Assembly (NCBI GenBank): GCA_963745295.1
Contig: CAVUWG010000003.1
Location: forward strand, 541,047 to 605,046
DNA: 64,000 nt
Source of the DNA: an uncultured Chloroflexia bacterium
GTDB lineage: Bacteria; Chloroflexota; Limnocylindria; Limnocylindrales; CSP1-4
Direction: 5' to 3'
Of this stretch, positions 19,941 to 59,190 are shown piece by piece; the first letter of the stretch is position 1; the number at the start of each line of letters is the position of its first letter. The notes under the pieces are model-generated. The model worked only from the letters and a program-made list of their open reading frames with translations. It made no database searches and was not told the origin of the DNA. Position numbers and translations under genes: made by a program.

Positions 19941-21779
19941 ATGACCACTCAGACCGAGGTCCTCGATCACGTCGTCACCGAGCCGCGCCGCACGTCGGTC
20001 CGGTTCCGGTTCGCGGTGGCCTTCTTCGCCGGCCTCATCGCGGCGACCGCGCTCGGGGCTGGAGCACTCTATGCGTACGACCAGCAGTACACCGGGCGGA
20101 TCGTCCCGGGCGTCCACATCGGGAACGTCGACCTTTCCGGCCTGACACCCGATGAGGCGGCCCTCCGACTCACAGAGGCGTACGGCTCGTTCGCCCAGGG
20201 AAATGTCATCGTGCAGGGCCCGGACGGTGCCGTGACCCTCGACTACGCCGGTCTCGGTCGCGGGCCGGACGTCGCGACCATGGTGTCGGAGGCGATGGCG
20301 GTGGGCCACAGCGGCAACGCCGCGGAACGGGCGATCGCCGGGGCCCGCACCGCCGTCAACGGCATCACGCTCGAGCCGCGGGTGCGCGTGGACGCGACGG
20401 CCGTCGCTGATCGGATCACGGCCCTGGCGGCGACCGTCAAGCGCACGCCGTCCGAGGCCTCGATCTCGATCGACTCGAAGTTCAAGTTCACCGTCAACCC
20501 CGGATCGGACGGCCGCGAGGCGGACCCGACCACCGCGACGGCCGCGATCCTCGCCGCGCTCGGTACGATCGAAGCGCCCGACGCCGTCACCGTCGACCTG
20601 CCGGTCACGACCGTCGAGCCGACCGTCAGCACGGTCGAGGCGACCGGGGCCAAGGCAGTCGCCGAGCGCGTGACCGCGGACATCGTCCTGACCATCGGTG
20701 ATGACGAGTACACGATCGACAACGAGAAGCTGCGCACCCTGGTCTCGTTCGCCCCCACCGTGGTCGGCGGGTACACGCCCCTCGTCGACACGACCGCACT
20801 CGACAAGGTCGTCAAGAGCCTGGCCAAGAAGATCAATCGCAAGGTCGTGAACGCCACCTACCGGATCTCGGGCGGCAAGATCAGCAGCGTCGTGCCCAGC
20901 AAGGACGGGCGGGCGCTCGATGTCGAGGCCACCACCGCGCAGGTCCGGGCGCTGCTGAAGTCCCGGTCCGACGGCGCCAGCACCGCCAAGCTCGAGCCGA
21001 CGGTCACCAAGACCGAACCGGCCCTGACCACCGCTGAAGCGAAGGCCGCGGCACCGAAGATGCGCGAGATCTCGCGCTGGACGACGCCCTTCCAGATCTA
21101 CGAGCGCAACGGCTTCGGGGCGAACATCTGGATCCCGGCGCTGACGATCGACGGCTATGTCGTCGCCCCGCACACGAAGTTCGACTTCTGGGATGCGGTC
21201 GGGACCATCAGTCGGGCGAAGGGCTACAAGCAGGGCGGCGCCATCATCGACGGCCGGACGGAGCCGCAGGGCGCCCTCGCCGGCGGCATCTGCTCATGCT
21301 CGACGACCCTCTTCAACGCCGCCCTCCGCGCCGGCTTCAAGATGGGCGCACGGCGCAACCACTTCTACTACATCGATCGATACCCGCTCGGCCTCGACGC
21401 GACAGTCTTCATCAGCGGCTCGGGTTCCAAGCAGACGATGTCGTTCACGAACGACACGGACTACCCGGTCCTCATCCGCGGCTACAAGATCCGCAACGGG
21501 TCGCGCGGCTTCGTCCGGTTCGCCCTGTTCAGCGTGCCGAACGGCCGCCGGACGACCTTCAGCCGGCCGATCGTCAGGAACATCCGCCGCGCGTCGGACA
21601 CGGTCCAGTACACGTCATCGCTCGCGCCCGGCGTTCGGGAGCGGATCGAGTTCCCGGTGGATGGCAAGCAGGTCTGGGTGACGCGGACCGTGCGCGACAA
21701 GAAGGGCAAGCTCGTCCACCGCGAGACCTACTTCTCCAACTACGCGCGCATCACCGGCGTCACGCTCGTCGGCCGCTAG
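19941..21779 (+). CDS. VanW family protein (N-terminal TM anchor, PG-binding-like region, VanW domain)
   Basis: GGICSCSTTLFNAALRAG matches the VanW signature. 612 aa. Confidence 0.8.
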   Translation: MTTQTEVLDHVVTEPRRTSVRFRFAVAFFAGLIAATALGAGALYAYDQQYTGRIVPGVHIGNVDLSGLTPDEAALRLTEAYGSFAQGNVIVQGPDGAVTLDYAGLGRGPDVATMVSEAMAVGHSGNAAERAIAGARTAVNGITLEPRVRVDATAVADRITALAATVKRTPSEASISIDSKFKFTVNPGSDGREADPTTATAAILAALGTIEAPDAVTVDLPVTTVEPTVSTVEATGAKAVAERVTADIVLTIGDDEYTIDNEKLRTLVSFAPTVVGGYTPLVDTTALDKVVKSLAKKINRKVVNATYRISGGKISSVVPSKDGRALDVEATTAQVRALLKSRSDGASTAKLEPTVTKTEPALTTAEAKAAAPKMREISRWTTPFQIYERNGFGANIWIPALTIDGYVVAPHTKFDFWDAVGTISRAKGYKQGGAIIDGRTEPQGALAGGICSCSTTLFNAALRAGFKMGARRNHFYYIDRYPLGLDATVFISGSGSKQTMSFTNDTDYPVLIRGYKIRNGSRGFVRFALFSVPNGRRTTFSRPIVRNIRRASDTVQYTSSLAPGVRERIEFPVDGKQVWVTRTVRDKKGKLVHRETYFSNYARITGVTLVGR

Positions 21780-23599
21780 CCCGGATCCGGTCCCGCCACC
21801 GACCGAGCCGGCCGACCGCGGCCAGCTCTCCTGACGACGAGGCGGATGCTGCCGGGCCCGAGTGGCGCCGAAGCCCCTGGGCGATCGCCTCGGCCTCGCG
21901 CGAGTCGACGCCGAACCTGCGCAGCGAGTACCGGACCATCTGGACCGCCAGCTCGCGCTCGCCGTGTACGGCCTGGACGCGACCGCTGACTGCGCGAAGG
22001 TCGGCCGCCTCGGTATCGCTGTGGGTGCGCACGACGTAGTCGATCGCCGGGTTGGCCGCAAGCGCCCGCTCGACGACCAGGCGCGTGACGTGCGGATCGG
22101 AGCTGGCCACGATGACGAGTCGGGCCGTCCGAACGTGGGCCCGCTCGAGGACCTCGGCGTTCGAGGCGTCCCCGTAGATCGCGGCGATGCCACGCGCCCG
22201 GAGCTGTTCCACCTCGCGTCGCTGGAGCGTGATGACGACGTACCGGAACCCGCGCCGGTCCAGGGCCGGGCCGATCAGGCGACCGACCCGACCGAAGCCG
22301 CACAGGATCGCATGCCCTCGGAGCGGGGTCTCGTCCTCGGCGGATCCGAGGACCGCGAGGCCGCCGGCCTGCCGCTCGAGCCAGCGGGTCAGGACCGGGA
22401 GCGCCGCGGAGGCGGCGGTCCAGCGGATCGACGACGCGGAACAGGAACGGATTGATCGCGATCGAGAGGAGCGAGCCAGCGACGATGAGCTGGAACCCCT
22501 CGGTGGGCAGCAGCCCGAGGGTCAGCCCGACCGTGCCCAGGATGAACGAGAACTCACCGATCTGGGCCAGTCCGACGCCGACGGTCAGGCCCGTCCGGAG
22601 CGGGTAACCGAACAGCGTGACGATCGCGAACTTCACGATCGACTTGGACACGACCACCAGCCCGACCATCGCGAGGATCGCGAGCGGATACGTGATGAGG
22701 AAGTTCGGGTCCAGCAGCATCCCGACCGACACGAAGAAGAGGACCGCGAAGGCGTCACGCAGCGGCAGGGCGTCGGCAGCCGCCTGGTGGCTCATGTCCG
22801 ATTCCCCGACGACCGCGCCGGCGAGGAACGCGCCGAGGGCGAACGAGACGCCGAACACGGTCGATGAGACGAACGCGATGCCGAGGGCGATGGCCAGCAC
22901 CGCGAGCGTGAACAGCTCCCGCGAGCCCTGTTGGGCGACGTGGTTCAGGAGCCAGGGGACGAACCGCGCGCCGCCGACGATCATGACGACCGCGAAGATC
23001 GCGGCCTTGCCGAGCGCGAGGGCGACGCTCCCGACCGCGCCCATGCCGTCGGTCGGGCCGCTTCCGGTCGTGCCGAGGAGCGACGCGATCGTCGGGAGCA
23101 CCACCAGGATCACGACCGTGAACAGGTCCTCGACGATGAGCCAGCCGACCGCGATCCGGCCCTGCGGCGCGTCGAGCTCGCCGCGGTCGTCGAGGGTCCG
23201 CAGCAGGACGACGGTGCTCGCGACCGACGCGGCGAGGCCGAGGATGAGGCCCGCCCCGATCCCCCAGCCGAGCGCCACTCCGAGCCCGACCCCCAGGAAG
23301 GTCGCCACGACGAACTGGCCGACGGCGCCCGGGATGGCGATCCGCCGAACGGCGAGGAGGTCCTTGATCGAGAACTCGATCCCGACCCCGAACATCAGCA
23401 GGATCACGCCGATCTCGGCGAGCTCACTGGCGATCTGCGTGTCCGCGATGATGCCCGGCGTGAACGGGCCGAGCGCCACCCCCGCGGCGATGTAGCCGAC
23501 GATAGTCGGGAGCCGGAGACGCTGCGCGATCAGCCCGCCGATGAACGCGGCAACGAGCCCGATGGCGATGGTCGAGATGAGGACGGGCTCGTGGTCCAT
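21760..23599 (-). CDS. KefB-like monovalent cation:proton antiporter (CPA2) with C-terminal RCK/TrkA-N domain; apparent +1 insertion near 22400-22420 separates the domains
   Basis: The 13-TM antiporter core lies in ORF 21776..23599. The RCK domain (RGHAILCGFGRVGRLIG) is in another frame, represented by ORF 21760..22212 and its open upstream extension. Confidence 0.7.
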
Positions 23600-23751
23600 G
23601 GCTCCTCCCGACGAGGGGGTGGGCGCAGGACTGGCGCGGGTCCGTGCCAGAACGACGACTGGGTGGCCCGGACACGATACCCCATGCCGGGCCCCACCCG
23701 GCCGTCAACCGGCCCGAACGGCCGTGCCGGCGCCCGGTCCGCCGTGAGCCC

Positions 23752-25946: not shown

Positions 25947-26006
25947 GCGGTCGCCCCACCATACGCGCCGTTCGCAAGCGGCGGCCCAGGGACGAACGTA
26001 CGCCCC

Positions 26007-27287
26007 TCAGGTGGGCACCGTTGCCGGGGCGGCCCCTTCGTCCTGCTTCGGGATCATCGTCGCAGCCAGGACCGCCGCCAGCACCGCGGCCGCCACCCCG
26101 ACGATGATCGAGGCTTCGATCGATGTCGCCGCCAGCACCCCGGCGATGACGGCGCCGGTCGGGTAGCCAAGGAAGTTGAACGCCATCGAGACCGCGAACG
26201 CCCGACCCATCCAGGCGACATCGGTGCGGCGTTGCCGGACCGTGAACAGGGCGATGTCGGCCGGACCCTGCAGGAAACCGTAGCCGCCCATCGCGATGGC
26301 CGCGGCGATGAACCCGACGGCGGGGTCGGCCGCGCCGGCGGCCACCAGCAGGATCGCCAGCGTCGGCCCGACCAGGAGCATCGGGATGACCAGCAGCGGC
26401 CATTCGCGGCCGCGCGTGTCCTGACGGCCGAACCAGAGCGCCGACGCCATCCCGGTCACGCCACTGATGGCGAAGACCACGCCCACGAGCGCCTCGCCGG
26501 CATGCAGCCGCTCGAGCACGATGAGCGGGATGACGATCGTGATCATCCCGCCCGCGATGTTCAGCGCCGAGATCGAGAACCCGAGGCCCCGCAGGGTCGG
26601 GTTGGCCCACGTGTACTTGACGCCGTCCCAGGCGTCGCGCAGCAGGCGGCCGGTCGAGTCGCTCAGCGACGGCGGGTCTGGCGCCCCGATGAGGGCGACC
26701 GCCGCGAGACCGAACGTCACCCCGATGACGATGAGCGCGACGGGACCGCCTGCGACGGTCACGAGCGTGGCGGCGATCGGCGGCCCGAGGATGGTCGCGA
26801 CGACATAGCCGTTCGAGTCGATGGCGTTGACGCGTTCCCAGAGATGCTCAGGCACGATCATCGGCAGGAGGCTGCGCATGCCGGTGTGGCTGAGGATGCT
26901 CGTCAGCGACGAGACGATCGTGATCAGCACGAGCAGCTCGGGCGGCAGGGCGTCGGCCAGCGCCAGGACCCCGATCAGGACCATGGCCACCAGGGCGACG
27001 ATGAAGTCGATGATGATCAGGCGCGTCCGACCGTGGCGATCGAGGAGCGCCCCGGCGATGGGGGCGACCACCAGGCCCGGGAAGATGCTGGCGAACGTCA
27101 CGACCCCCGCCAGGGCCGGCGAGTCGTACTCGGTGAGGACGAAGAGCACGAGCGCCACGCTGACCATGGACGTGGCGACGCGCGAGATCTGCATCGAGAG
27201 CAGGATCCGGCCGAGGCGCGGGATCGCGAGCAGGGCACGGTACGAAGCTTCCGGGGTCTCCGGAGCCTCATCAGGCTGGGGGATCAC
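26007..27287 (-). CDS. MFS transporter
   Basis: 12-TM profile. Intact 426-aa ORF. Confidence 0.8.
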   Translation of the reverse strand: MIPQPDEAPETPEASYRALLAIPRLGRILLSMQISRVATSMVSVALVLFVLTEYDSPALAGVVTFASIFPGLVVAPIAGALLDRHGRTRLIIIDFIVALVAMVLIGVLALADALPPELLVLITIVSSLTSILSHTGMRSLLPMIVPEHLWERVNAIDSNGYVVATILGPPIAATLVTVAGGPVALIVIGVTFGLAAVALIGAPDPPSLSDSTGRLLRDAWDGVKYTWANPTLRGLGFSISALNIAGGMITIVIPLIVLERLHAGEALVGVVFAISGVTGMASALWFGRQDTRGREWPLLVIPMLLVGPTLAILLVAAGAADPAVGFIAAAIAMGGYGFLQGPADIALFTVRQRRTDVAWMGRAFAVSMAFNFLGYPTGAVIAGVLAATSIEASIIVGVAAAVLAAVLAATMIPKQDEGAAPATVPT

Positions 27288-27355: not shown

Positions 27356-30300
27356 TCAGGTCGCCAGGCCGGTCACCGGTGCTGTCGGCGTCGGCGGCTC
27401 ATCGGTCGTCGTTCGGCCGAAGCGCAGATAGAGGACCGGCACGAGGAACAGGTTCAGGAGTGTCGAGGTCACCAGGCCGCCAAGGATGACGATGGCCATC
27501 GGGTGCTCGATCTCGTGACCCGGCAGGTCGCCGGCGATGACGAGCGGGACGAGCGCGAGACCGGTGGCCAGCGCCGTCATGAGGATCGGTGACAGCCGCT
27601 CCCTGGCGCCCCGGATGATGAGCCCGACGCCCCACGGCTCACCCTCGAACCGCTCGAGATGCTGGTAGTGGTTGATGAGCATGATCCCGTTGCGGGCCGC
27701 GATCCCGAGGACGGTGAAGAACCCGACCAGCGACCCGAGCGAGATGACCCCACCGCCGAGGCTGGCCGCGAGAATCCCGCCGACGAGGGCCGATGGCAGG
27801 GCGACGAACGAGACGAGCGCGAGACGCGTGCTGCCGAATGCCGCCTGGAGCAACAGGAAGATGCCGATCGCCGCCCCGAGCGCGAAGAGCATCAGGCGAT
27901 CCGACGCCGCCTGCCGCTCGGCGAACTCGCCGATGCAGCTCCGGGTGGTACTCGAGCGGCCAGTCGATCGACGCGATGGCGGCCTCGACGTCGCTGACGA
28001 CGGCCCCGAGGTCACGGCCCTCGACATTCGCCCCGACGTCGATCCGGCGTGAACTGCCCTCGCGGTTGATCACGTTGGGGGTCGGCTTGATGCTGACGTC
28101 AGCGACGTCGTCGAGGCGCACCTGGCTCCCGTCGGGCGTGTCGAGGAGGATGCCGCGGATGCTTGAGAGGCTGTTGCGGACCTCCGGCGAGCCCCAGATC
28201 CGCACGTCGAAGATCTTGCCCTCGCGGTACGTGTCGTTGACCTCCTCGCTAGCGACCAGAGCCGACACGGCCCGCCGGACGTCACCGGGCTTGAGGCCGT
28301 GGCGCTCCGCTGCGGCGAGGTCCACCTGGATGTCGATCTGCGGGATCTCGGTCTGCAGCTGGACATGGAGATCGATGATCCCGGGGATCGCCTCCATGGC
28401 CTCCTCGAGCTCCTCGGCCTTGACGTGGAGCGTGTCGAGCTCCGGGCCGAAGATCCGGATCGTGATCGCCTCACTCGAGCCGGTGAGCACCTCGCGGATG
28501 CGTTCCTTGAGATAGGTCTGCACGTCGCGCTGGAGCCCCGGGTAGCCGTCGACGACCTCCTGGATGTGCGCCACGGTGTCCTCGTAGTCGACCGCCGGAT
28601 CGACGCTGACCCAGTTCTCGCCGAAGTACATGCCGACGACTTCGTCCGCAGCCAGTGCCTGCCCGATGTGGGCACCGAAGTTGCGCACGCCCGGGATCTC
28701 CCGCAGCTCCTTGCTCGCCTGGGTCGTGATGCGGACCATCTCCGGGTGCGAGGCGCTCGGGGTCGTCAGCCAATGCATGAGGAAGTCGCGTTCCTTGAAC
28801 GAGGGCAGCAGCGACTGGCCGAGACCGGGAAGGACCAGCGAGACCCGCAAGGACGACGGTCCCGGCGGCGGCCCACGCCGCGCGCGGCTGGGCGACGACC
28901 CGGGCCAGGATCCGGCTGTAGCGCGCCTGGAGCCATCGCACGAGGCTCGATTCGCGTCGCTCGATCGGAGCGTTGCGCAGCAGGATGAGGGCCAGCGCCG
29001 GTGTGACCGTCAAGGCGACGAGCATCGACGCCAGGACCGCCAGGCCGTATGAGATCGCCAGGGGTTGGAAGAATGCGCCCGACAGGCCGCCGATCATGAA
29101 CACGGGGATCAAGGCCACGACATCGATGAGCGTCGCGTACACGATCGCGCTGCGGACCTCCAGCGATGCCTCGAGGATCACCGTGTGGGTCGACTTCGGG
29201 ATCCCCTCGCGCCGTGCCTGGCGCAGGCGTCTCACGATGTTCTCGACATCGATGATGGCGTCGTCGACGACGACCCCGACGGCGATGACGAAGCCCGCGA
29301 GGACCATGGTGTTGAGCGTCGCACCACCCGCGGACAGCACGACGGCGGCCGCCATGAGCGAGAGCGGGATCGCGATGACGCTGATCAGGGCCGTCCGCCA
29401 GTCGAAGAGGAACAGGAGCAGGACGGCGACGACCAGCAGGACGCCGAGCAGCAGGGCATTGCTCAGGTTGCCGATCGCATCCTCGATGAACGTGGCCGGA
29501 CGGAAGATCGCGGCGTCGACCTCGATCCCCGGCAGCGCCGGCTCGAGGACCGCCAGCGCCTCCTCGACGCCACGCGTCACGTCCAGCGTGTTCGCCCATG
29601 GGAACTTCTCGACGATCAGCAGCAGGCCTTCGCCGTCGTTGATGACCGCATCGCCGATGAGGGGCTGATGCCCCACCACGACGTCCGCGACGTCGCCGAT
29701 CCTGGTCACCCGCGTGCCGTCCGCCTCGACCACGACCTCGCGGAGGTCCAGTTCGTCCGCCATCGGCTGGACGTGCGACACGGCCAATCGCTGGTTGGGC
29801 GTCTCGACGAACCCGCCGGTCCCCACCGACGCGCCGTTCGCGAATTTGAGTAGACCTGCATCGAGCGCATCGGCCGTCGCCGTCATCATCTGGTTGAGGG
29901 TCAGCCCGTTCGCGGCCAGCCGTTCGGGCTCCACATACACGTGCAACATGCGATTGCGCTGACCCCAGATCGCGACATTCGCGACGCCCGGGACCTCCAT
30001 GAGGCGCGGGCGGATCTTCCAGCGCGCCATCAATGACAGGTCGATGAGGTCCACCGTGTCGGACGACAACCCGATCTTCATCGTCCGGCTCGTCGCCGAG
30101 AGCGGCTGGATCATCACGGGCGGCGTGGTCCAGGACGGCAGCGTCGGGGCGACGGTGGCCAGCCGCTCCTGGATGAGCTGGCGCGCATCCAGGAGGTCCG
30201 TCCCGGGCTCGAGGATCATCACGATCGAGGAGAGCTGCGGGACGGACTTGGAGCGCATGACGTCGAGCCCCGGGAGGCCCTGGAGCGCCTGCTCCAGCGG

Positions 30301-30501
30301 GATCGTGACGAGTGATTCGATCTCCGACGTGGAGAGCCCCACCGAGGCCGTCTGGATCTCGACGCGGGGCGGCGCGAATTCGGGGAAGACGTCCACCGGC
30401 ATGTCGCGCACCTGGCCGATGCCGAAGAACATCAGCGCGGCCGCCATGCCCAGCACGATGAAGCGGAACCGCAGGCTCAAGCCCACGATCCGCCGCATCA
30501 T
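27356..30501 (-). pseudogene. RND efflux permease paralog disrupted by at least two single-base insertions (about 28860 and 27965)
   Basis: Three colinear fragments (ORFs 28471..30501, 27639..28850, 27356..28027) align end-to-end with the intact neighbour. Each successive fragment sits in the adjacent frame, consistent with +1 insertions. Confidence 0.7.
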
Positions 30502-30543
30502 GGTGTCGGCCCTCCAGCGCCCGCGGTCATCGCCGGCCGGGCC

Positions 30544-34491: not shown

Positions 34492-34868
34492 TGGTGGAGA
34501 TGGGGGAGAGTCGAACTCCCCGTCCAGGACCCTTCGCCGGAGACCAACTACGAGCGTGTCCGATGATTTGTCGTCGACCGCCCGGACGGGCATCGGCACT
34601 CTGCCGGACGGTCCAGTCACGTGCCCCTAGATCGGGCTTGACTCCGGACTACGCAACGCTGATCCGGATCGCAGCCCCGCTGGATGACGCTTCCACTACC
34701 CGCGGGACGGAGGTAGCTTCCACGCTCACCTTACTGCCTAAGCAGCGAGGGCGAGAGTCGACTGGCGGTTGCCAGGTACTTCGTTTTGCTGCCTGATTAA
34801 CGAGGCCTGAGCAGCATCCTCGGCTCGCGCTCTCCGGTAGCCAGGCCCTGTCGAAACCACACATCCCC
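34492..34868 (-). ncRNA. ssrA: tmRNA (SsrA)
   Basis: 5' GGGGAUGUGUGGUUUCGACAGGG, 3' tRNA-like GGGGAGUUCGACUCUCCCCCAUCUCCACCA, and a 7-bp acceptor pairing. An internal reading frame ends ...GNRQSTLALAA followed by a UAG stop. Confidence 0.85.
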
Positions 34869-35017
34869 ACAGGACCCGAACGCCGGTTCGGATTGACGAT
34901 CGTACCACGAGGCGTTCACGGGCTCCCCTCGCGCCCGGGAACGACTCTTGGTGACCAAGCCATACGACGGACAGGGCCATTCGGATGGGTCGCGGGACCG
35001 ACCTATACTTCCCCGCG

Positions 35018-35488
35018 ATGGCGCGCGACCGTACCGACGAGGCTGCCTGGGAGCTGGTTCGCGAGCGCCTGCACGCGCAGGGCCTGCGCTGGACGCCGCA
35101 GCGGCGGACGCTCGTGGATGTCCTGAGTCGGACGGACGGCCACGTCACCGGATCCGAGCTCGTCGAGCGCTGCCGGGCGCTGGATCCGACCACGACGCCC
35201 TCGACCGTCTATCGAACGCTCGACGTCCTCGAGGACCTGGGCTACGTCAGCCACCACCACGGCGTGGACGGCCGCGAGGAGTTCCACGTCCTGCCGACCG
35301 AGGAGCACGGCCATCTCCACTGCCGCTCGTGCGGAGCCTCCTGGGAGATCCTGGCGCGCGAGGCCGACGCGATCGCCGGCGCACTCGACGCCGGCCGCGG
35401 ATTCACCGTGGACCCGTCGCACATCACGATCACCGGGCGGTGTGCCGCGTGCGCCGCCGCGGAGCGCGAGGTCGACGCCGCCGTCTGA
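35018..35488 (+). CDS. Fur family transcriptional regulator (Fur/Zur-like)
   Basis: WTPQRRTLVDVL DNA-binding helix and HHH...CxxC metal sites. The start was chosen at MARDRTDEAAW. Confidence 0.8.
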   Translation: MARDRTDEAAWELVRERLHAQGLRWTPQRRTLVDVLSRTDGHVTGSELVERCRALDPTTTPSTVYRTLDVLEDLGYVSHHHGVDGREEFHVLPTEEHGHLHCRSCGASWEILAREADAIAGALDAGRGFTVDPSHITITGRCAACAAAEREVDAAV

Positions 35489-35689
35489 GGCGCCAGCCTC
35501 CGGGACCATCGACCCATGGGGTCGAACGGCGAACGCTGGTATCGTTGGACATGGCCGAACCTCCTCAGGGAGGACGGGGGACCCACGTACCGGGGCGAAT
35601 CGCGGACGACCGCGGCGGCGAACCCACGCCGAGCCCGACAGCTCACCTCGCAGGCCAAGCGGGCTTTTCGAGGTACGTGGTGCAACGCT

Positions 35690-36938
35690 CATCTCTCACA
35701 TCGCCGAATCGGCGCGCGCTCGGGCGCAATCTCGCGCTCGACCTGGTCGCCGCGGTCGGCGTCGGGGTGAGCATGGCCCTGGTCACGACGCTCCTTCCGA
35801 CGATCGCCCGTCGCGGCGGACTCGAACCGCTCGGCCTCGCGGCGCTGGCCGCCGCTCCATTCATCGCCAACCTGCTCGGCGTGTTCGCGGGCCGATTCGG
35901 GCCCACGATCGCCGCGCCAGTTGGCCGTCATCCGCTGCGTCGGCGCGGCGTCGCTGATCGCTCGTCATCCTGCTTCCGACGCCGTTCGTCATGGTCCTCG
36001 CCTCGATCGTGTTCTGGGTCAGCCTGTCGTTCGGCGGCCCGTTCCATCTCCGACTCTGGGGCGCGATGTATCCGGCTCGTCTGCGCGGCCGCATCGTCGG
36101 GATGATCGGCACGGGTCGCGCCGCGGCCGGTGCCCTCGCTGCCTTCGGCGGTGGCCTGCTCGCCGACCAGGTTGGCGGTCCGCCGGCCGTCGCGTTGGGC
36201 GGCCTGGTCGGGGCCGTCTGTGCCGTCGCGTACGTCGGGCCTGCGTGCGCCAGGCCGCAGGCGACCTGCCTCGCTTCTCAGCGCGCGACTCGATCCAGGC
36301 CCTCCGCGAGCGCCCGGTGCTCCGCCGCGTCGCGCTGGCCCAGGGGTTCTACGGCGGCGGCCTCATCGCGGCACTCCCGCTGTACGCGCTCGTCTACGTC
36401 GACCGGCTCGACCTGTCGCTGTCCGACGTCGGCATCATCGGGATCCTGACCGCCGCCGCGACGACCGTGTCGTTCCTCGTCTGGGGCATCGTGGCCGACC
36501 GGTTCGGTGCGATGGTCGCGATGCGGATCGGCAGCGCGATGGGGCTCGCTGTCGTTGCTGGGCTATGTCATCGCCCCGGACGTGGCCCTGCTCTGGGTCG
36601 CGGCCGTCGCGGCCGGCGCGGGGAGTGCCTCGATCGACGTCGGCATCGCCTCGGTCGTGAGCGAGCACACCTCGATGTCGTCCCGCGCCCCGGCGATGGC
36701 CGGCTGGAACGCGATCACCGGCGCGCGCGGCATCGTGGCCGCGTTCCTGATGAGCGCCCTCCTGCAGGCCGGGATCGTGGACGTCACCACGGGTCTGCTG
36801 CTGTGCGCGATCTCGTCGGCGATCGGCGTGGCGCTGTACGTGCGGACCGGCACTGATGCGGCGGCGGCGACGTCGCCGGTCATGCCGGCTCGCGTGGTTC
36901 GCGCCGCCACTGGGTTCCGGGCAGCCGTCAGCCGCTGA
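35690..36938 (+). pseudogene. MFS transporter with four or more frame changes
   Basis: TM-rich stretches of one MFS protein are spread over ORFs 34948..36105, 35921..36856, 35991..36449 and 36507..36938 in alternating frames. The 5' boundary is approximate; a possible ATG lies at 35551. Confidence 0.6.
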
Positions 36939-36960
36939 CCGTCGCCGCTACGATGCGGCG

Positions 36961-37560
36961 ATGCGCCTGACGCCCTGGGAGGAGGAGCGGCTCCTCATCT
37001 TCACCGCCGCGGAGCTGGCTCGGCGTCATCGCGCGGCCGGGCTCCTCCTCAACGCCCCCGAGGCGGTCGCGCTCATCTGCGACGCGATGCTCGAGGCGGC
37101 GCGGGCCGGGCGCGAGCTACGAGGACGTCGAGGCCGCCGGGCGCGCCGCGGTGGAGCCATCGCGAGGTGCTCGACGGCGTCCGCGAGCTGGTCGACGAGG
37201 TCCGGCTCGAGGTGCTGATGGGCGACGGGACGCGACTCGTCGTGCTGTCGACCCGCTCGGGCGACGGCGCCGCCGACGGTGACGGCCCGGGCGCGATCCG
37301 GCCGGCGACGGCCGCCCGCCACGAGCCGGCCGAACGCGAACGGCGCAGCCTCGAGGTCCGCAGCGAATCGACGCGGGTGATCCGGGTCTCCTCGCACTAC
37401 CCGTTCGACCGGGTGAACCGCGCGGCTCGTCTTCGACCGCGAGGCCGCGCGCGGCTTCCGCCTCGACCTGCCGGCCGGCGCGACCGAGCGCTGGGCGCCC
37501 GGCGAGACGCGGACCGTCGGCCTGGTCCGGTTCGGCGGCGAGGCGGACGACGGTGAGCCG
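36961..37560 (+). pseudogene. ureAB: Fused urease gamma-beta subunit (ureAB) with two or more +1 insertions
   Basis: [23 protein letters not shown]... is Ure[28 protein letters not shown] is the UreA C-terminus in the next frame. [10 protein letters not shown]...[19 protein letters not shown] is UreB. Extra G and extra C/G identified at about 37108 and 37150. Confidence 0.65.
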
Positions 37561-39279
37561 GCTCTCGCCCGGACGAACGGCTCGCCCGCTACGGCCCGAC
37601 GACCGGCGACCGCGTCCGCCTGGGCGACACCGACCTCTGGGTCCGGGTCGACGAGGACCGCCAGGCGCCCGGCGACGAGCCGATCTGGGGCTACGCGAAG
37701 ACCATCCGACCCGCGCACGACCCAGGGGCGGCCCGGCCCGTCGGAGCTCGACGTCGTCGTCGCCGGCGCGCTCGTCATCGATCCGGTCGTCGGCGTCGTC
37801 AAGGCGGACATCGGGATCAAGGACGGCCGGATCGTCGGTGTCGGGCGGGCCGGCAATCCGCGCGATCAGCGACGGGATCGACCTGCCGATCGGGCCGCAC
37901 ACGCAGCCGATCATGGGCTACGGCCTGATCGCGACGCCCGGGCGCGGTCGACAGCCACGTCCACGCGATCAGCCCGGAGCTCCTGCCCGCGGCCGCTGTC
38001 CGGCGGCGTGACGACGCTCATCACCGCCGGCTTCGAGGAGCCGCCGTGGGCGATGGAGCGGACGCTCGCCGGCCTCGCGGAGTGGCCGGTCAACGTCGGG
38101 CTGCAGGCCGGCGCCCGGGCGGAGGACGACGGATCGCTCGAGGCCCTGCTCGATGCGGGCGCGTGCGGCTTCAAGATCCACGAGGACTACGGCGCCTACC
38201 CGGAGCTGATCGACCACGTCCTGCGGTTCGCCGACGCGCACGACGTCGCCGTCTCGCTGCACACGGACGGGCTGCACGAGTCGGCCGAGCTCGAGGACAC
38301 GATCGCCGCGATCGCCGGCCGGACGGTCCACGCCTACCACGTCGAGGGGAGCGGCGGCGGCCACGTGCCGGACCTGCTCGGCCTCGTCCGCGAAGCCGAA
38401 CATCATCTGCTCGTCGACGACGCCGACCATCCCGTTCGGCGTCAACGCGGCGGCCGAGCAGGTCCCGATGATCGTGCTCAACCACGGCGCGTCGTTCGGC
38501 GGTGGCCGAGCGACATCGCGCTGGTCCGCGAGCGCGTCCATCGCGGCCACGATGGCCGCCGAGGGGCCGCTCCACGAGCTCGGCGCGATCGGCATCGTCA
38601 ACTCCGACTCGCAGGGCATGGGCCGGATCGATGGAGACGGTCCGGCGGACGATCCAGCTCGCCCACGTCATGCGCGCCTGGCGCGCGATCGCGGCCGGTG
38701 CGGGCCATCCCGGGTCTGCCCGACGGAGCCCGACGACGCCGTTCGATTCGACACGAGCGCGTCCTGCGCTACCTGGCCAAGGTCACGATCGAGCCGGCGA
38801 TCACCCACGGCATCGCCGACCACGTCGGGTCGCTGCGCGCCGGGCCGGCTCGCCGACATCGTGCTGTGGACGCCCGGCGTACTTCGGGGTCAAGCCCGAG
38901 CTGGTGCTCAAGGCCGGCTATGCCGGCCTGGGCGCCGCTCGGCGAGGGCAACGCCACGGTCGAACGGGCCGAGCCGACCCGCTACCGGCCGGACTGGGGC
39001 GGCAGCGGCCGAGCCGCCGCGAGCCTGTCGGCGACGTTCGTGTCGGCGCGCGGCGCGGCGGACCGGCGGGCCTCGGACCCGGCTCGAGTCGTCCGGGCGG
39101 ACGCGTCGTCGCCGGTCGCGGCGACGCGCGGCCTGACCCGCGAGTCGCTCGCCCGCAACCGCGCGACCGCGCCGATCGAGATCGACCCGACCGACGGCCG
39201 GGTCACGCTGGCCGGCCGGCCGCTCGCGGTCGAGCCGGTCGACGACCTGCCGCTGAACCGGCGCTACTTCCTGCGCTGA
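37553..39279 (+). pseudogene. ureC: Urease alpha subunit (ureC) with multiple frame changes
   Basis: Urease alpha segments ([72 protein letters not shown], ...NRRYFLR end) lie in at least four different frames (ORFs 37553.., 38008.., 38468.., 38502..). Confidence 0.65.
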
Positions 39280-39299
39280 CCCTACGCCCAGATGTCGCC

Positions 39300-40310
39300 G
39301 ACCGTGAAGCCGTCGGGGAACGGGTCCGTCGGGTCGACGACGTAGCGCGCGAACCCGGTGATCCAGGCCTGGCCGGTGATCGTCGGGACGATCGCCCGGT
39401 ACGCCCCGACCGTCGTCTCCTCGACCAGCCGGCCGGTGAAGACCGTGCCGAGGATGCCCTCGTGGCGGAACGCGTCGCCGACGCGCGAGCTCGCCCTTCG
39501 CGTGGAGCGTCGCCATCTTGGCGGACGTGCCGGTCCCGCACGGCGACCGGTCGATCGCGCCGGTCCAGGTCGCCGGCCGCTCCCAGTCGAGCGTCCCGGT
39601 CGAGACCGTCACGACGTTCCGGCGGCTGTTCGCCGGATCGTGCGGCGGGCCGGACAGCTGCCCGATCGTGATCCCGGCGAACCCGGGCTGCTCCGGGTGG
39701 ACGACCGGCAGCTGCTCGGCGGCGGCGGCCTTGATCATCTCGGTGATCCGGACGATGTCGGCGCCCTCGTCCGGGGTGAGCCGGAGCCCGAACGGCTCGG
39801 CGTCGGCGATGACGTAGAACATCCCGCCGTAGGCGACGTCGACGATGACCGTGCCGAGCTGCGGCACCTCGATCGGCGCGTCCGAGGTGCGTCGCGAACG
39901 CCGGCACGTTGCGGAACGTGACGCCCGTGACCTTGCCGTCGCGGCAGTCGGCGGTCACCCGGATGAGCCCGGCCGGCGCCTCGAGCGTCAGCTCGGTCAC
40001 CGGCTCGCGTCATCGGCAGCATCCCGGTCTCGAGCAGGACGGTCACGACGCACATCGTGTTCGTGCCGGACATCCCGGGGTACTCGACCTGCTCCATGAT
40101 CACGTAGCCGGCGTCCGCGTCCGGGTGGTTCGACGGCAGGATCAGGTTGCAGTTCGCCGCCGGGTAGCCGCGCGGCTCGCGCAGCATCCGCAGCCGCAGG
40201 TCGTCGCGGTTGGCCTGGAGCCAGGTCATCTTGTCGAACATCGTCGTCGCCCGGCACGTCCTCGACGCCGCCGACGATGACCCGGCCCGGCTCGCCGGCC
40301 GCGTGCGCAT
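39300..40310 (-). pseudogene. Proline racemase / 4-hydroxyproline epimerase family gene with two or more +1 insertions
   Basis: [36 protein letters not shown] (ORF 39735..40310), MTELTLEAPAGLIRVTADCRDGKV (ORF 39203..40000) and VIVDVAYGGMFYVIADAEPFGL...SPCGTGTSAKMA (ORF 38908..39867) lie in successive frames. Confidence 0.6.
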
Positions 40311-40370
40311 CGACGGCCTCGATGACCGGACCGAGCCGAAGCGATCCGGGACGCTCGGTCACGTCCGATC

Positions 40371-40842
40371 CTACCGGCCGCGCTGGGCGTCGGCGAGCTC
40401 GCGCGCCACGTCGCGCCTCGCGTCGCGGTCGGCGATGTCGCGGCGCCGGTCGTGGAGCTGCTTGCCGCGCGCCAGCCCGAGCTCGACCTTGGCCCGGCCC
40501 TTGGCGGTGATGTACAGCCGCAGCGGCACGATCGTCTGGCCCTTGGCCTTGGCCCGGCCGAGCAGCTCGTCGATCTCGCGAGCGGCGGAGGAGCAGCTTG
40601 CGCGTCCGCTTCGGCTCGTGGTTGTAGCGGTTGCCGCCCTCGAACGGCGCGATGTGGGCGCCGACCAGCCACGCCTCGTCGTTCTCGACGCGCGCATAGG
40701 CGTCGGCAGGTTGGCCTTGCCCAGCGCGGATCGACTTGATCTCGGTCCCGGTCAGGACGATGCCGGCCTCGAACGTGTCGTCGATCGTGAACTCGTGGCG
40801 GGCTCTTCGGTTGAGGGCGACGGTGTGCTCGTCGCGCATGGA
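40371..40842 (-). CDS. smpB: SsrA-binding protein SmpB, interrupted by a single-base insertion near 40585
   Basis: N-terminal half ...[21 protein letters not shown] in ORF 39997..40860. C-terminal half [40 protein letters not shown] in ORF 40371..40697, one frame away. Confidence 0.75.
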
Positions 40843-41064
40843 GTGGCTCCTTCGGAACACGACTGCGGGGAGTATGGCCTGAGCGCACGAACGCCGGCCC
40901 TATTCGGGCCGGCGTCCGAGATGCTTACCCACCCACAGGGTGTCCGACTAGACGGCCATCTCCTGCGAGGTGGTGCAGCTACGCGTACTGTCGATCACTG
41001 CACATCACCTCCTTTCGTTCCCGAGAACCGTACCTGATGCGCGGGTGCCGTGCAAGGCCACGGA

Positions 41065-42465
41065 TCAGGCGGCGGCGCGCATCCCGGCGTCGGCCGAGGC
41101 GCCGAGCACCTCGAGCGCCTTGTCGAGCGTCGGGTCCTCGCCGTCCGGCCGGTCCGCTGGGACCTCGACCGCCACGTCGGGGATCAGGCCGACATCGTGG
41201 ATCCAGCGCTTGTTCGGCGTCAGCCAGCGGGCGATCGTGAGCTTGAAGGCCCCGCCTTCGCCGGTGAGCTCCTGCCATTGCTGGACGGTGCCCTTGCCGA
41301 ACGACGTCTGGCCGACCAGCGTCGCGCGCTTGGTGTCCTGCAGCGCCCCGGCCACGATCTCGCTCGCCGAGGCGCTGCCGCCGTCGATCAGGGCCACGAT
41401 GTTTAGGTCCGGGCTCGTCGCGACGCCATCTGGCGTGGCCTCGGTCGAGACCTGGCCACCCTTCGAATCCTGCTCCCAGAAGATGACGCCCGAGTCGATG
41501 AACTGGCTGGCCACCGACCGTGCCGCGGTCACGTAGCCGCCCGGATTGCCCCGCAGGTCGAGGATCAGCTTCGTCCGACCGGCCTTGATATGGGCCGTGA
41601 GCGCGTCGCGCAACTCGATCGCGCCGTCATCGGAGAAGCCGCTCAGGCGAAGGTACCCGACGGTCCCTCCGGCGAGCGCCTCGCTGACGACCTCGCGTTC
41701 GTGGACGACGTCGCGCGTGATCGCGAGGTCGAACGGCTCGTCGGCCCCGCGCAGCACGCTCAGCGTCACGACCGTGCCCTTGGGCCCGCGGATCCGGTCC
41801 CGCGCCTCGTCGACCGTCAGCCCGTCGAGCGACGTCCCGTCAGCGGCCAGGATGAGGTCCCCGGTCGTGAGGCCGGCCTTCTCGGCCGGCGAGCCGGCGA
41901 TCGCCGCGATGATCAACAGTCGGCAATCGGATCCGAGCGTCGCGCAACCCTGCGTCCCGTCGGCCGCCTGCGTCGCGATCTCGGCACCGATGCCCTCGAA
42001 CTGACCGCCGATGCCCTGCAGGCTGTCGCGGTACTCCTGCGAGGTCAGGTACGCCGAGTACGGGTCGCCGAGCGCATCGATCATCCCCTTGATCGCGCCC
42101 TGGATCAGCGCGTTCCGATCGACGTCGCCGCCGGCATACCGGTCGGTGACGGTGTGATAGGTGTCCCAGAACGGCTGGAAGGCCTGTTCCTCGGAGACCG
42201 GCGTCCCGGGCTGCTCCGAGGCGTGGATGCCCATCGTGTAGCCGGACATGAACAGGGCGCTGCCCGTCAGGACCGCGACGATGACGATCGCGACCGAGAG
42301 GTTCGAGATCCGACGGCGCACCGGCACGGGCGGGGGCGGTGGCACGCTCGCCGCGAGCGGGCCGGTCAGTGGGTCGGGCGCCGGGTCGGGCGCCGCGGCC
42401 GGCAGTGCGGACGTGGCGGGCGGTGGGCCGTCGTCGGCCGTCGTCGAGGGGTCGTGCGGAAGCAT
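41065..42465 (-). CDS. Carboxyl-terminal processing protease (S41 family, PDZ domain) with N-terminal Pro-rich region and TM anchor
   Basis: PDZ domain followed by an S41 catalytic core (GGSASASEIVAGAL...TSFGKG). Confidence 0.85.
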   Translation of the reverse strand: MLPHDPSTTADDGPPPATSALPAAAPDPAPDPLTGPLAASVPPPPPVPVRRRISNLSVAIVIVAVLTGSALFMSGYTMGIHASEQPGTPVSEEQAFQPFWDTYHTVTDRYAGGDVDRNALIQGAIKGMIDALGDPYSAYLTSQEYRDSLQGIGGQFEGIGAEIATQAADGTQGCATLGSDCRLLIIAAIAGSPAEKAGLTTGDLILAADGTSLDGLTVDEARDRIRGPKGTVVTLSVLRGADEPFDLAITRDVVHEREVVSEALAGGTVGYLRLSGFSDDGAIELRDALTAHIKAGRTKLILDLRGNPGGYVTAARSVASQFIDSGVIFWEQDSKGGQVSTEATPDGVATSPDLNIVALIDGGSASASEIVAGALQDTKRATLVGQTSFGKGTVQQWQELTGEGGAFKLTIARWLTPNKRWIHDVGLIPDVAVEVPADRPDGEDPTLDKALEVLGASADAGMRAAA

Positions 42466-45481: not shown

Positions 45482-46589
45482 TCACGCCGCGTCCTCGTCG
45501 CCACCGATGCCGCGTTCCAGCTCGGCCTGCATGAACGGGTCGAGGTCGCCGTCGAGGACGCCAGCGGTGTTGCTCGTCTCGTACTCGGTCCGCAGGTCCT
45601 TGACCATCTGGTACGGGTGCAGGACATAGCTCCGGATCTGGTTGCCCCAGCCGGCCTCCACGTGTTCGCCCTTGAGGCGTTTGGTCTCGGCTTCCTTCTC
45701 CTCGAGGGCCTTCTCGAGGAGCCGGGCCTTGAGCACCTTGATGGCCATCTCCTTGTTCTGGGTCTGGCTGCGCTCGTTCTGGCTCTGGGCGACCACGCCG
45801 GTCGGCAGGTGGGTCAGCCGCACGGCCGAGTCGGTCTTGTTGACGTGCTGACCGCCGGCCCCTTGCGAGCGGAAGGTGTCGACCCGGATCTGGTCCCAGT
45901 CGAGCTCGATCTCGATGTCGTCGTCGACCTCGGGCAGCACCTCGACCAGGCCGAACGTCGTCTGGCGCCGGTTCTGGGCATCGAACGGGCTGATGCGCAC
46001 GAGGCGGTGGACCCCGCGCTCGGCGCGGAGCCAGCCGTACGCCCGGCGTCCCTGGACCGCCACCGTCACGCTCTTGAGCCCGGCCTGCTCGCCTTCCTGC
46101 TGGTCCAGGATCTCGGTGGCGAATCGATGCCGTTCGGCCCAGCGGAGGTACATGCGCAGGAGCATCTCGGCCCAGTCGGTCGCTTCCGTGCCGCCGGCCC
46201 CGGCACTGATCATCAGCAGGGCATTGCGATCGTCGTACTCGCCCGCGAACAGGAGGGCGGTCCGCTCGCGGCGGAAGTCGGTCTCCAGGGCGGTCGCGTC
46301 ACGTTCGAGTTCGGCTTCGAGGTCGGCGTCGGGTCCCTCGTTGAGCAACTCGACGGCGGCCAGCAGGTCGTCGGCGCGGGCCCCGAGGTCGCGCCACATG
46401 CCGATCTCCTCGCGGAGACCGTTGGCTTCGCGCAGGACCGCCTGGGCGGCTCGGCTGTCGTCCCAGAACCCCGATCCCTGGGTCAGCGTCTCGAGTTCGG
46501 CGACGCGCCCTTCCTTGGCGTCGAGGTCAAAGACGCCCCGAGGTCGACCGGATCCGTTCGGCCAGGTCCCGGATGGCGGCGGGTTCCAC
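45482..46589 (-). CDS. prfB: Peptide chain release factor 2 with a programmed +1 ribosomal frameshift (CUU UGA C at about 46526-46532)
   Basis: A 20-codon frame-0 leader from GTG (VEPAAIRDLAERIRSTSGRL) runs into an in-frame TGA within GGGG-CGT-CTT-TGA-C. The +1 frame continues DLDAKEGRVAELE... through SPF and GGQ motifs. Confidence 0.9.
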
Positions 46590-46826
46590 CTAGTTCCTGG
46601 TCTGCAGGTCCTGGAGCAGGAGCGGGCGCAGCTCGATGAGCCGCAGCGCCGTCTTGCTCCGGGCGACGACGGGGTTGACGCACGGACAGTAGCCGTTGTG
46701 GGGGCAGACGCCGCAGTTGCCGTCGCAATCGAGCGCGGCGGCATAACTGCACGACCGGCAGTCCCGCTCGCAGGCGATCAGATCGACGAACGACGCTTCC
46801 TCGGCCTGCTTCACGGACTCCCTCAC
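46590..46826 (-). CDS. Small Cys-rich protein (10 Cys, two Cx3Cx2C clusters), possible metal-binding; hypothetical
   Basis: 78-aa ORF abutting the prfB start. GC3-rich codons. CERDCRSC and CDGNCGVCPHNGYCPC cysteine clusters. Confidence 0.35.
   Translation of the reverse strand: MRESVKQAEEASFVDLIACERDCRSCSYAAALDCDGNCGVCPHNGYCPCVNPVVARSKTALRLIELRPLLLQDLQTRN

Positions 46827-56148: not shown

Positions 56149-56159
<11 letters not shown>
55617..56159 (-). CDS. PaaI/4HBT-type hotdog-fold thioesterase
   Basis: The motif [18 protein letters not shown] fits the hotdog-fold thioesterase family. 180 aa. Confidence 0.6.

Positions 56160-59190
<3,031 letters not shown>

Follow-up and report, generated by a model that had tools for sequence, protein, structure and literature searches.

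Within a 64-kb stretch of a contig from an uncultured Limnocylindrales bacterium (64,000 nucleotides, hereafter the window), one short block carrying an MFS transporter gene, a urease set, a proline-racemase-like gene and smpB changes reading frame again and again. The question raised by this locus is whether the frameshifts belong to the organism or to its assembly. A preliminary description, based on the letters and their open reading frames, had favored the decay of an accessory segment whose urease is an orphan, and kept a locally badly polished assembly with insertion bias as the alternative. The comparisons presented here point to the second reading. The frameshifts very probably reflect errors in the consensus of a soil metagenome assembled from nanopore reads alone, and not decay, since dozens of related genomes carry these genes in an intact, conserved form; this judgment is drawn from assembled sequences rather than from reads.

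Frameshifts were counted with a protein-to-DNA dynamic-programming aligner that tolerates changes of frame, together with an alignment of close relatives; an earlier DNA alignment of 40 sequences was discarded, as it contained gaps of lengths other than multiples of three even in short-read genomes. Against the intact orthologs of a related locus (L005), 30 frameshifting events were identified in five genes at 35.7-40.8 kb of the window: 4 in the MFS gene, 3 in ureAB, 18 in ureC, 4 in the proline-racemase-like gene and 1 in smpB. The resulting density is about 6 per kb, versus 0.1-0.2 per kb elsewhere in the window, and the Poisson probability of at least 30 events in 5.15 kb at the background rate is below 1e-32. 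All 30 events are insertions (+1 in 27, +2 in 3, no deletions), a direction for which a sign test gives p = 2e-9. Once the extra bases are removed, no in-frame stop is left and the five genes align end to end; a GC3 frame plot displays repeated phase changes over 35.6-40.6 kb. The dense frame changes that had been described are therefore real, while the proposed count of about 15 in about 5.4 kb was too low, because closely spaced insertions partly cancel. A background of about 0.1-0.2 per kb fits both a few other split genes of the window (an AcrB-like gene at 27.4-30.5 kb, a Na/H-TrkA gene at 22.4 kb and gyrB near 56.7 kb) and the approximately 3-4 window-private indels present in 17.5 kb outside the block. 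The two single-base insertions quoted as examples are also seen against the relatives, at 37111 and 37162.

Table 1. Features of the locus, in positions of the window, with the evidence for each or the positions of the inserted bases.
Feature	Position	Strand	Evidence or insertions
tmRNA gene (ssrA)	34492..34868	-	Rfam RF00023, 120.3 bits (gathering score 47), full length
Fur-family transcriptional regulator	34985..35488	+	intact single ORF; NCBIfam Fur/Zur/PerR matches, all under equivalog cut-offs
c-di-AMP (ydaO/yuaA-type) riboswitch, leader of the MFS gene	35543..35668	+	Rfam RF00379, 67.6 bits (gathering score 38), model positions 1-134
noisy divergent patch	35660..41300	both	from the riboswitch end to the 3' end of ctp; three-way same-species comparison
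MFS transporter gene	35686..36938 (start codon approximate)	+	35899, 35963, 36241 (+2), 36551
ureAB, fused urease gamma-beta subunit	36961..37556	+	37108, 37163, 37419
ureC, urease alpha subunit	37553..39279	+	18 insertion-type frameshifts: 37568, 37710, 37861, 37937, 37995, 38398, 38508 (+2), 38542, 38630, 38716 (+2), 38741, 38754, 38836, 38870, 38925, 39064, 39104, 39123
proline-racemase-family gene	39282..40374	-	39486, 39880, 40010, 40248
smpB, core trans-translation gene	40371..40839	-	one inserted base at ~40578

Beneath the errors, the riboswitch, the MFS gene, the fused ureAB and ureC would form an ordinary, functional-looking operon (Table 1). The riboswitch occupies the region that had been taken as the beginning of MFS coding sequence (from 35551), and RF00379 precedes the MFS gene in each of the seven loci scanned, including those of species without ureABC. 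In frameshift-aware alignment the MFS gene covers residues 2-417 of the 417 of its L005 ortholog (330/414 identical, no stops), and PF07690 was called on an MFS fragment in a sister contig. The fusion of ureA with ureB and the recognition of ureC from end to end, both already reported, are borne out. An intact ureAB ortholog scores 184.7 bits with NF009671 (bifunctional urease gamma/beta), under the cut-off of 243, and the gamma and beta models also match. The corrected ureC product has 568 aa and is 87% identical to that of L005 without stops; the alpha subunit scores are 612 bits for NF009686 (cut-off 354) and 531 for the equivalog TIGR01792 (cut-off 680). The proline-racemase-family product is identical to its L005 counterpart at 323 of 362 positions, also without stops. 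Its top match is the trans-3-hydroxy-L-proline dehydratase NF047722, with 368 bits, under the cut-off of 550; all equivalog scores are under cut-off and no specific activity (racemase, epimerase or dehydratase) is assigned, so that its similarities support membership of the proline racemase family (PF05544) only. The GTG start of this gene overlaps the smpB stop by 4 nt, and the two are probably translationally coupled, on the strand opposite to MFS-ureABC. After removal of one base, the smpB product is identical to that of L005 at 144 of 155 residues, and an intact smpB ortholog scores 203 bits with NF003843 (cut-off 130). On the other side of the block, PF01475 was called on the sister contigs for the Fur-family gene. 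The tmRNA gene, found at the same location in relatives, is the far border of the variable cargo separating ssrA from smpB and lies outside the noisy patch; a negative ARAGORN result for it was discarded in favor of the Rfam detection.

The order c-di-AMP riboswitch, MFS, ureAB, ureC, proline-racemase-like gene and smpB is kept in many Ca. Limnocylindrales genomes. Of 44 syntenic loci, 35 have an unbroken ureC, and UreC orthologs of about 568 aa number in the hundreds, at 80-90% identity. Among 5.8 billion proteins searched, none was an intact UreC of the same species, the best full-length matches being at most 90% identical, and no copy from a short-read assembly of that species turned up. 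Across the order, the genes of the block are intact and, to judge from their sequences, under purifying selection. What lies between smpB and the tmRNA gene varies, some species being without ureABC and some without the racemase-like gene. The idea of an accessory segment thus stands in part, since the cargo is variable at the level of the order and the block is an allelic island within the species (see below), but it fails as regards decay, given that the genes are intact under purifying selection.

The closest public relatives are Microflora Danica genomes, whose long-read MAGs were obtained from Nanopore reads with Flye --meta and one Medaka round, with no short-read polishing (PMC12313526); from these relatives we infer that the window itself was made by a pipeline of the same type. 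Frameshifts in ureC, ureAB and smpB are confined to Flye/nanopore assemblies, affecting 9/29, 9/28 and 1/42 loci, respectively, versus 0/15, 0/15 and 0/29 short-read loci. Pooled over four genes, 27 of 127 nanopore loci are frameshifted as against 1 of 75 short-read loci (Fisher p = 3e-5), and over five genes the Flye/nanopore loci contain 119 insertion-type versus 6 deletion-type frameshifts. Core or essential genes are struck too: smpB in the block (free of frameshifts in all 70 other loci), gyrB elsewhere in the window, and ftsX, ctp and secA in the sister assemblies.

This picture resembles the known consensus errors of nanopore-only assemblies, in which 1-nt indels fragment genes and essential genes are affected (Sereika et al. 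2022, PMC9262707; PMC12313526). The likeness extends to lesions occurring only in the nanopore assemblies of the gene set, and to a low contig-wide rate with a local rise. On the other hand, the errors described are mainly homopolymer indels, whereas the insertions of the window rarely adjoin the same base, almost no deletions are present, and the errors are limited to a 5.7-kb patch. Only 3 of 23 single-base insertions adjoin the same base, versus 54% expected, while 13 of the 23 have the context C[G]C or G[C]G, versus 7% expected, a signature for which no documented cause could be cited. Insertions adjoin third codon positions in 26 of 33 cases (22 expected), a weakly positive result that carries no weight in the argument.

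Two further assemblies of the same species, ERZ25039494 contig_16284 and ERZ25039591 contig_67494, were reached via exact FtsX and AcrB protein matches and compared with the window. Both are identical to it at 31-34 kb. Substitutions and inserted bases private to the window amount to only 0-2 per kb at 31-34 kb and 42-44 kb, versus 35-37 substitutions and 5-11 inserted bases per kb (33 inserted bases in all) at 37-41 kb. The window has 26 private insertion events, 23 of them of 1 nt, and most indels are located at different positions in the three assemblies: 89 insertions over 35-44 kb are private to contig_67494 and break ctp and ftsX as well, and in contig_16284 secA is split, whereas that of the window is intact.

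The substitutions tell real divergence from noise. In all three assemblies, about 63% of the private substitutions fall on third codon positions, which rules out that all of the block divergence is noise and indicates that most of it is real. In ureC, 66% of the differences among the three alleles occupy third codon positions of the original frame, and because of this concentration the original frame must have been under purifying selection while the alleles diverged. The smpB-tmRNA block forms a genuine island of allelic divergence, in which the three alleles differ mostly synonymously and the flanks are identical. A mosaic of the two sister alleles as the origin of the window found no support, private sites being interleaved without long runs. 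Besides the real divergence, the window appears to carry a noise component. Where 8 relatives agree, the changes private to the window show a flat distribution among codon positions (21/24/36) and consist mainly of G<->C and AT>GC, not of GC>AT, the change expected of natural mutation; the private changes of the sister contig are third-position and GC>AT.

That the patch coincides with real allelic divergence points to a consensus drawn from mixed strains or at low depth, and less to a limit of basecalling. A high microdiversity of soil has been stated by the Microflora Danica authors (PMC12313526), and R10.4 assemblies require about 40x coverage for near-finished quality (PMC9262707). In the model that we propose, the block would be covered by reads of several alleles, or each allele would have a low effective depth, and the poor consensus would then gain spurious 1-nt insertions plus some spurious substitutions. 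In most insertions a G stands between Cs or a C between Gs, as would be expected if both alleles of a G/C polymorphism were emitted. The badly polished, insertion-biased assembly that the preliminary description had kept as its alternative is hence well supported: 30/30 events are insertions, mostly private to one assembly, and frameshifts in ureC, ureAB and smpB are specific to nanopore assemblies.

Three coding insertions call for separate attention, as they are common to all three assemblies: 35903 in the MFS gene, and 37710 and 38398 in ureC. If these were real and most of the others artefacts, the riboswitch-MFS-ureABC operon would be inactivated in the species. Such a mixed case would explain why an identical extra base occupies each of these positions in assemblies of different samples, and the shared bases are absent from the other species compared, including nanopore assemblies with nearly identical local context. 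Nevertheless, between 37710 and 38398, a segment that would be out of frame if the insertions were real, the allele differences are distributed 9/4/38 over codon positions 1/2/3 of the original frame (75% third, p = 2e-9), and the corrected protein is the same as in other species on either side of each site, whereas, had a frameshift arisen early enough to be common to all three, that constraint should by now be relaxed. Several more insertion positions recur in two assemblies but not in the third, and the base inserted is not always the same, which argues for recurrent errors at prone positions. We consider a true inactivation by these three bases unlikely.

Real decay, in which the MFS gene, an orphan ureABC and the racemase-like gene would be turning into pseudogenes of an accessory segment through true mutations, is less probable still. 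Dense frameshifts are truly present in the sequence, ureDEFG are not nearby, ureABC and the racemase-like gene are patchy among the species of the order, and broken genes are seen here in both sister assemblies too. Mycobacterium leprae has undergone a reductive accumulation of pseudogenes, and there, as in the block, many disrupted genes are recognizable end to end. However, bacterial pseudogenes are deletion-biased and collect stops, whereas the lesions of the block are all insertions of 1-2 nt with no in-frame stops. They are mostly private to one assembly despite identical flanks, they affect smpB (and ftsX and ctp in a sister assembly), and in ureC, ureAB and smpB they are found only in nanopore assemblies, while the allele substitutions are concentrated on third positions of the original frame. 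Deletions, stops and substitutions free of codon-position bias, the marks of true decay of the M. leprae type, are missing from the block, and its lesions are for the most part not reproduced between assemblies, whereas those of true decay are reproducible between isolates. The short-read comparison and the codon-position result have already largely refuted this reading, and the decaying segment first proposed has to be given up: its genes are intact across the order, and its lesions are stop-free, nanopore-specific insertions of 1-2 nt that mostly differ between assemblies and also strike smpB. A biological mechanism, either programmed frameshifting/recoding or targeted hypermutation of the block, finds its one argument in the preference of the insertions for C[G]C / G[C]G surroundings and is vanishingly improbable, the 30 events being spread over five unrelated genes and both strands with no common slippery motif, absent from the short-read genomes of the same gene set and mostly different between assemblies.

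The orphan state of the urease had also been taken as a sign of decay. ureD, ureE, ureF and ureG are all missing from the 64 kb of the window and, in 83 related loci, from the sequence within 10 kb; a UreG homolog was found neither in the window nor in those 83 loci (1.48 Mb in total), and the gene calls of the sister contigs include no Ure accessory Pfam family. The initial observation was correct, and it extends to all 42 syntenic loci. Since the absence of ureDEFG is conserved in 42/42 of them, it is not evidence of decay: ureABC without adjoining ureDEFG is a conserved trait of the order. Alignment to H. pylori UreB (1E9Z) reveals that the metal ligands (HxH, carbamylated Lys, two His and Asp) and the catalytic flap His are kept, with the flap Cys replaced by Asn, and all ligand motifs are retained in the corrected ureC protein of the window.

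A comparable arrangement is known in Bacillus subtilis, whose ureABC has no accessory genes (PMC8600894); structural genes without adjoining accessory genes can therefore be a stable arrangement and not a sign of decay. Unlike in B. subtilis, the gamma and beta subunits of Limnocylindrales are fused, as in Helicobacter UreA, and the operon comes after a c-di-AMP riboswitch and an MFS gene. The two-subunit ureases of Helicobacter share the gamma-beta fusion. Among solved structures, the alpha subunit is matched best by H. pylori UreB (1E9Y/1E9Z, E = 6e-133) and by UreB2 of H. mustelae (3QGA), although it is well short of identical to H. pylori UreB and has Asn in place of the flap Cys. H. mustelae UreA2B2 (PDB 3QGA) is an accessory-independent iron urease. 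By analogy, it is conceivable, if rather doubtful, that the Limnocylindrales urease matures without the canonical Ni-insertion machinery, like that of B. subtilis or the H. mustelae iron enzyme, and that it is tied to c-di-AMP signaling.

The locus thus contains a 5.7-kb patch of contig with roughly 1% residual error. The error mode is non-homopolymer, strongly insertion-biased and concentrated at strain differences, and polishing aimed at homopolymers would not fix it. Noise and decay can nonetheless be separated without reads, by comparing long- with short-read genomes, by using independent assemblies of the same species and by considering the codon positions of the differences. Taken at face value, the patch would be mis-annotated as five pseudogenes, the core gene smpB among them, and claims of urease loss or genome decay made for this lineage from such assemblies would be wrong.

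The coding phase jumps again and again between 35.6 and 40.6 kb in a GC3 frame plot. A purpose-written protein-to-DNA aligner that allows frameshifts, run on the window DNA against the intact orthologs of the related locus L005, places 30 frameshifting events within the coding sequence of five genes (see table), all of which add DNA (+1 in 27, +2 in three). Once the extra bases are deleted, no in-frame stop is found in these genes and all five align end to end, with identities to L005 over aligned residues of 75% (ureAB), 80% (MFS), 87% (ureC), 89% (racemase-like) and 93% (smpB). The rate outside the block in the same window is about 0.1-0.2 per kb, against 30 events in 5.15 kb within it (Poisson p < 1e-32). 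The high density reported in the preliminary description is therefore stronger than stated, and the two single-base insertions quoted there are confirmed by comparison with relatives; its MFS coding sequence wrongly took in the c-di-AMP riboswitch. The sequence as supplied does have this density, which is nonetheless no biological feature: we are highly confident that a poorly polished nanopore consensus across a strain-variable block explains it best.

Features of the block and of other parts of the window discussed in the text (frameshifted loci given as frameshifted/total)
Feature	Coordinates	Strand	Frameshift events (vs L005)	Frameshifted loci, Flye/nanopore	Frameshifted loci, short-read	Remarks
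Na/H-exchanger/TrkA_N gene	21763-23704	-				split in window
MFS_3 gene	26007-27287	-				intact
Second AcrB-like gene	27359-30543	-				split
tmRNA gene (ssrA)	34492-34868	-				Rfam, full length, 120 bits
c-di-AMP riboswitch (ydaO-type)	35543-35668	+				immediately 5' of MFS gene
MFS gene	35686-36938	+	4			
ureAB	36961-37556	+	3	9/28	0/15	fused gamma + beta subunits
ureC	37553-39279	+	18	9/29	0/15	alpha subunit
Proline-racemase-like gene	39282-40374	-	4	8/28	1/16	GTG start
smpB	40371-40839	-	1	1/42	0/29	
Release factor 2 gene (prfB)	45485-46826	-				PCRF + RF-1 domains
gyrB	56152-58778	-				two overlapping ORFs

The block had been read as a decaying segment, which is not borne out: the locus is conserved, the lesions follow sequencing technology and same-species assemblies disagree. 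The G+C content of the window is about 70%. Its exact FtsX and AcrB-like proteins are also encoded by two ENA metagenome contigs of the same species, ERZ25039494 contig_16284 (1.03 Mb; loci L001 and L083) and ERZ25039591 contig_67494 (0.90 Mb; locus L082), and an FtsX scan of species-representative genomes yielded 80 syntenic loci, all 80 from Chloroflexota and mostly labelled Candidatus Limnocylindrales. The full gene order (tmRNA, Fur-family regulator, riboswitch, MFS, ureAB, ureC, racemase-like, smpB, ctp, ftsX, ftsE) is found again, at nucleotide identities of 72-92%, across dozens of Limnocylindrales genomes, with the tmRNA gene, matched by Rfam and missed by ARAGORN in the window, and the riboswitch at the expected place in every relative checked. 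Frameshifts are absent from ureC in 35 of 44 loci, the window included, and public protein data hold hundreds of ureC orthologs of about 568 aa at 80-90% identity. As ureABC or the racemase-like gene is missing from some species, what lies between smpB and tmRNA varies across the order, yet it is maintained wherever present; the locus is conserved, not eroding. This cargo (Fur, riboswitch-MFS, ureABC, racemase-like) fills a smpB-ssrA gap of about 5.5 kb and differs in content among species of the order. The smpB stop and the racemase-like start share 4 nt (GTGA, 40371-40374), which suggests translational coupling between a core gene and a variable neighbour.

The alternative already raised, a badly polished assembly region, is strongly favoured, as the frameshifts track nanopore assemblies and are mostly non-overlapping between the three same-species assemblies. 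The syntenic loci comprise many "MFD...bin" genomes with Flye-style contig names and short-read genomes (megahit or SPAdes). With the identical frameshift-aware aligner applied to all of them, nanopore loci are frameshifted more often than short-read loci for ureC, ureAB, smpB and the racemase-like gene pooled (Fisher p = 3e-5). Across all five genes, the nanopore loci carry 119 insertion-type against 6 deletion-type events; the insertion bias noticed earlier is thus a trait of this assembly family, not of the organism. For the MFD genomes, Nanopore reads were assembled by Flye (--meta --nano-hq) and given one Medaka round, without short-read polishing; their authors stress the high microdiversity of soils (PMC12313526). 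From its relatives, we infer that the window is a product of this pipeline too.

The window and its two sister contigs are identical at 31-34 kb, almost identical at 42-48 kb and strongly different in patches. Counting as private those changes seen in only one assembly, a three-way alignment gives the window 33 private inserted and 2 private deleted bases at 37-41 kb, while in contig_67494 the private insertions number 89 and the private deletions 29 across 35-44 kb, breaking ctp and ftsX too, and contig_16284 has few indels in the block region. Gene calling divides secA in two on contig_16284 (L001 3240-5965, corresponding to 47.6-50.3 kb of the window), where the window reads through in a single open frame of 1152 codons. 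Independent lesions that for the most part do not overlap, and that strike essential genes in nearly identical genomes, are an error pattern, not inheritance. Noisy patches differ by assembly, lying at window 49-53.5 kb in contig_16284 and at 28-31 and 35-44 kb in contig_67494. Because about 63% of private substitutions fall at third codon positions in each assembly, the block represents three true alleles with some 3-4% private change apiece between identical flanks; this island of divergence at 35.6-41.3 kb, in assemblies from different samples, suggests recombination or old polymorphism. At sites conserved in eight relatives, window-private changes have a flat codon-position profile (21/24/36) and are mainly G<->C and AT>GC. 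The private changes on contig_16284 lie at third positions and are GC>AT, resembling natural mutation; the window carries a noise component over true allele differences. At 26000-27000, within the MFS_3 gene, 17 private substitutions and no indels separate the window from both sisters, apparently another allelic patch, this one clean.

Three coding insertions, at 35903 (MFS) and at 37710 and 38398 (ureC), are common to all three assemblies, which makes them the strongest case for real frameshifts. However, an ancestral origin of 37710 and 38398 would have put the intervening 229 codons out of frame during allele divergence, and yet the allele differences there follow the original frame, with 9, 4 and 38 at its codon positions 1, 2 and 3 (p = 2e-9). 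The corrected protein also matches other species identically either side of each common site, and several further sites are common to just two assemblies, sometimes with a different inserted base. It is thus very unlikely that these insertions are real, and we conclude that they are recurrent, position-prone errors.

Among 23 window-private single-base insertions at 35.9-40.7 kb, the inserted base is G or C in 21. It adjoins the same base in only three (54% expected) and lies in a C[G]C/G[C]G context in 13 (7% expected), a pattern that is not homopolymer slippage. In these contexts the inserted base is mostly an allele found at the adjacent variable site in relatives. One guess, which this fits and which is suggestive, is that the consensus may have emitted both alleles of a G/C polymorphism. 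We know of no documented cause for this context combined with homopolymer avoidance.

Other genes of the window are split as well, three of them counted in the 0.1-0.2 frameshifts per kb outside the block. In gyrB, one frameshift near 56.7 kb separates overlapping ORFs (56643-58778 and 56152-56775), and this break in an essential gene outside the block fits the background error rate. The second AcrB-like gene has ACR_tran model positions 2-540 and 849-1020 on separate ORFs, with the middle part in another frame, and is split in both sister assemblies. The Na/H-exchanger/TrkA_N gene is broken by a window-private extra G at 22406 and encodes a single 612-aa protein on contig_16284. The short upstream ORF of prfB (46593-46826), in another frame, is probably a natural programmed +1 frameshift rather than an error.

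The ureC product scores 612 against the NCBIfam urease-alpha subfamily model (cut-off 354) and misses equivalog cut-offs. Its best solved-structure relatives are Helicobacter ureases, and it keeps every metal ligand and the flap His, with Asn replacing the flap Cys. The racemase-like gene belongs to the proline racemase family, model matches leaving its specific activity unassignable. The claim of an orphan urease stands for the surroundings of ureABC, in that an approximate UreG query found no homolog in the window or any fetched locus (1.48 Mb). The orphan state is no evidence of decay, because Bacillus subtilis ureABC likewise stands without accessory genes, with low activity (PMC8600894). 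The riboswitch 5' of the MFS gene is kept in L001, L005, L007, L011, L018, L045 and L077, which include species without ureABC. A modestly interesting by-product is a conserved riboswitch-MFS-ureAB-ureC operon without adjoining accessory genes, whose urease genes may be co-transcribed under c-di-AMP control, since ureAB begins 22 nt past the MFS stop in the window.
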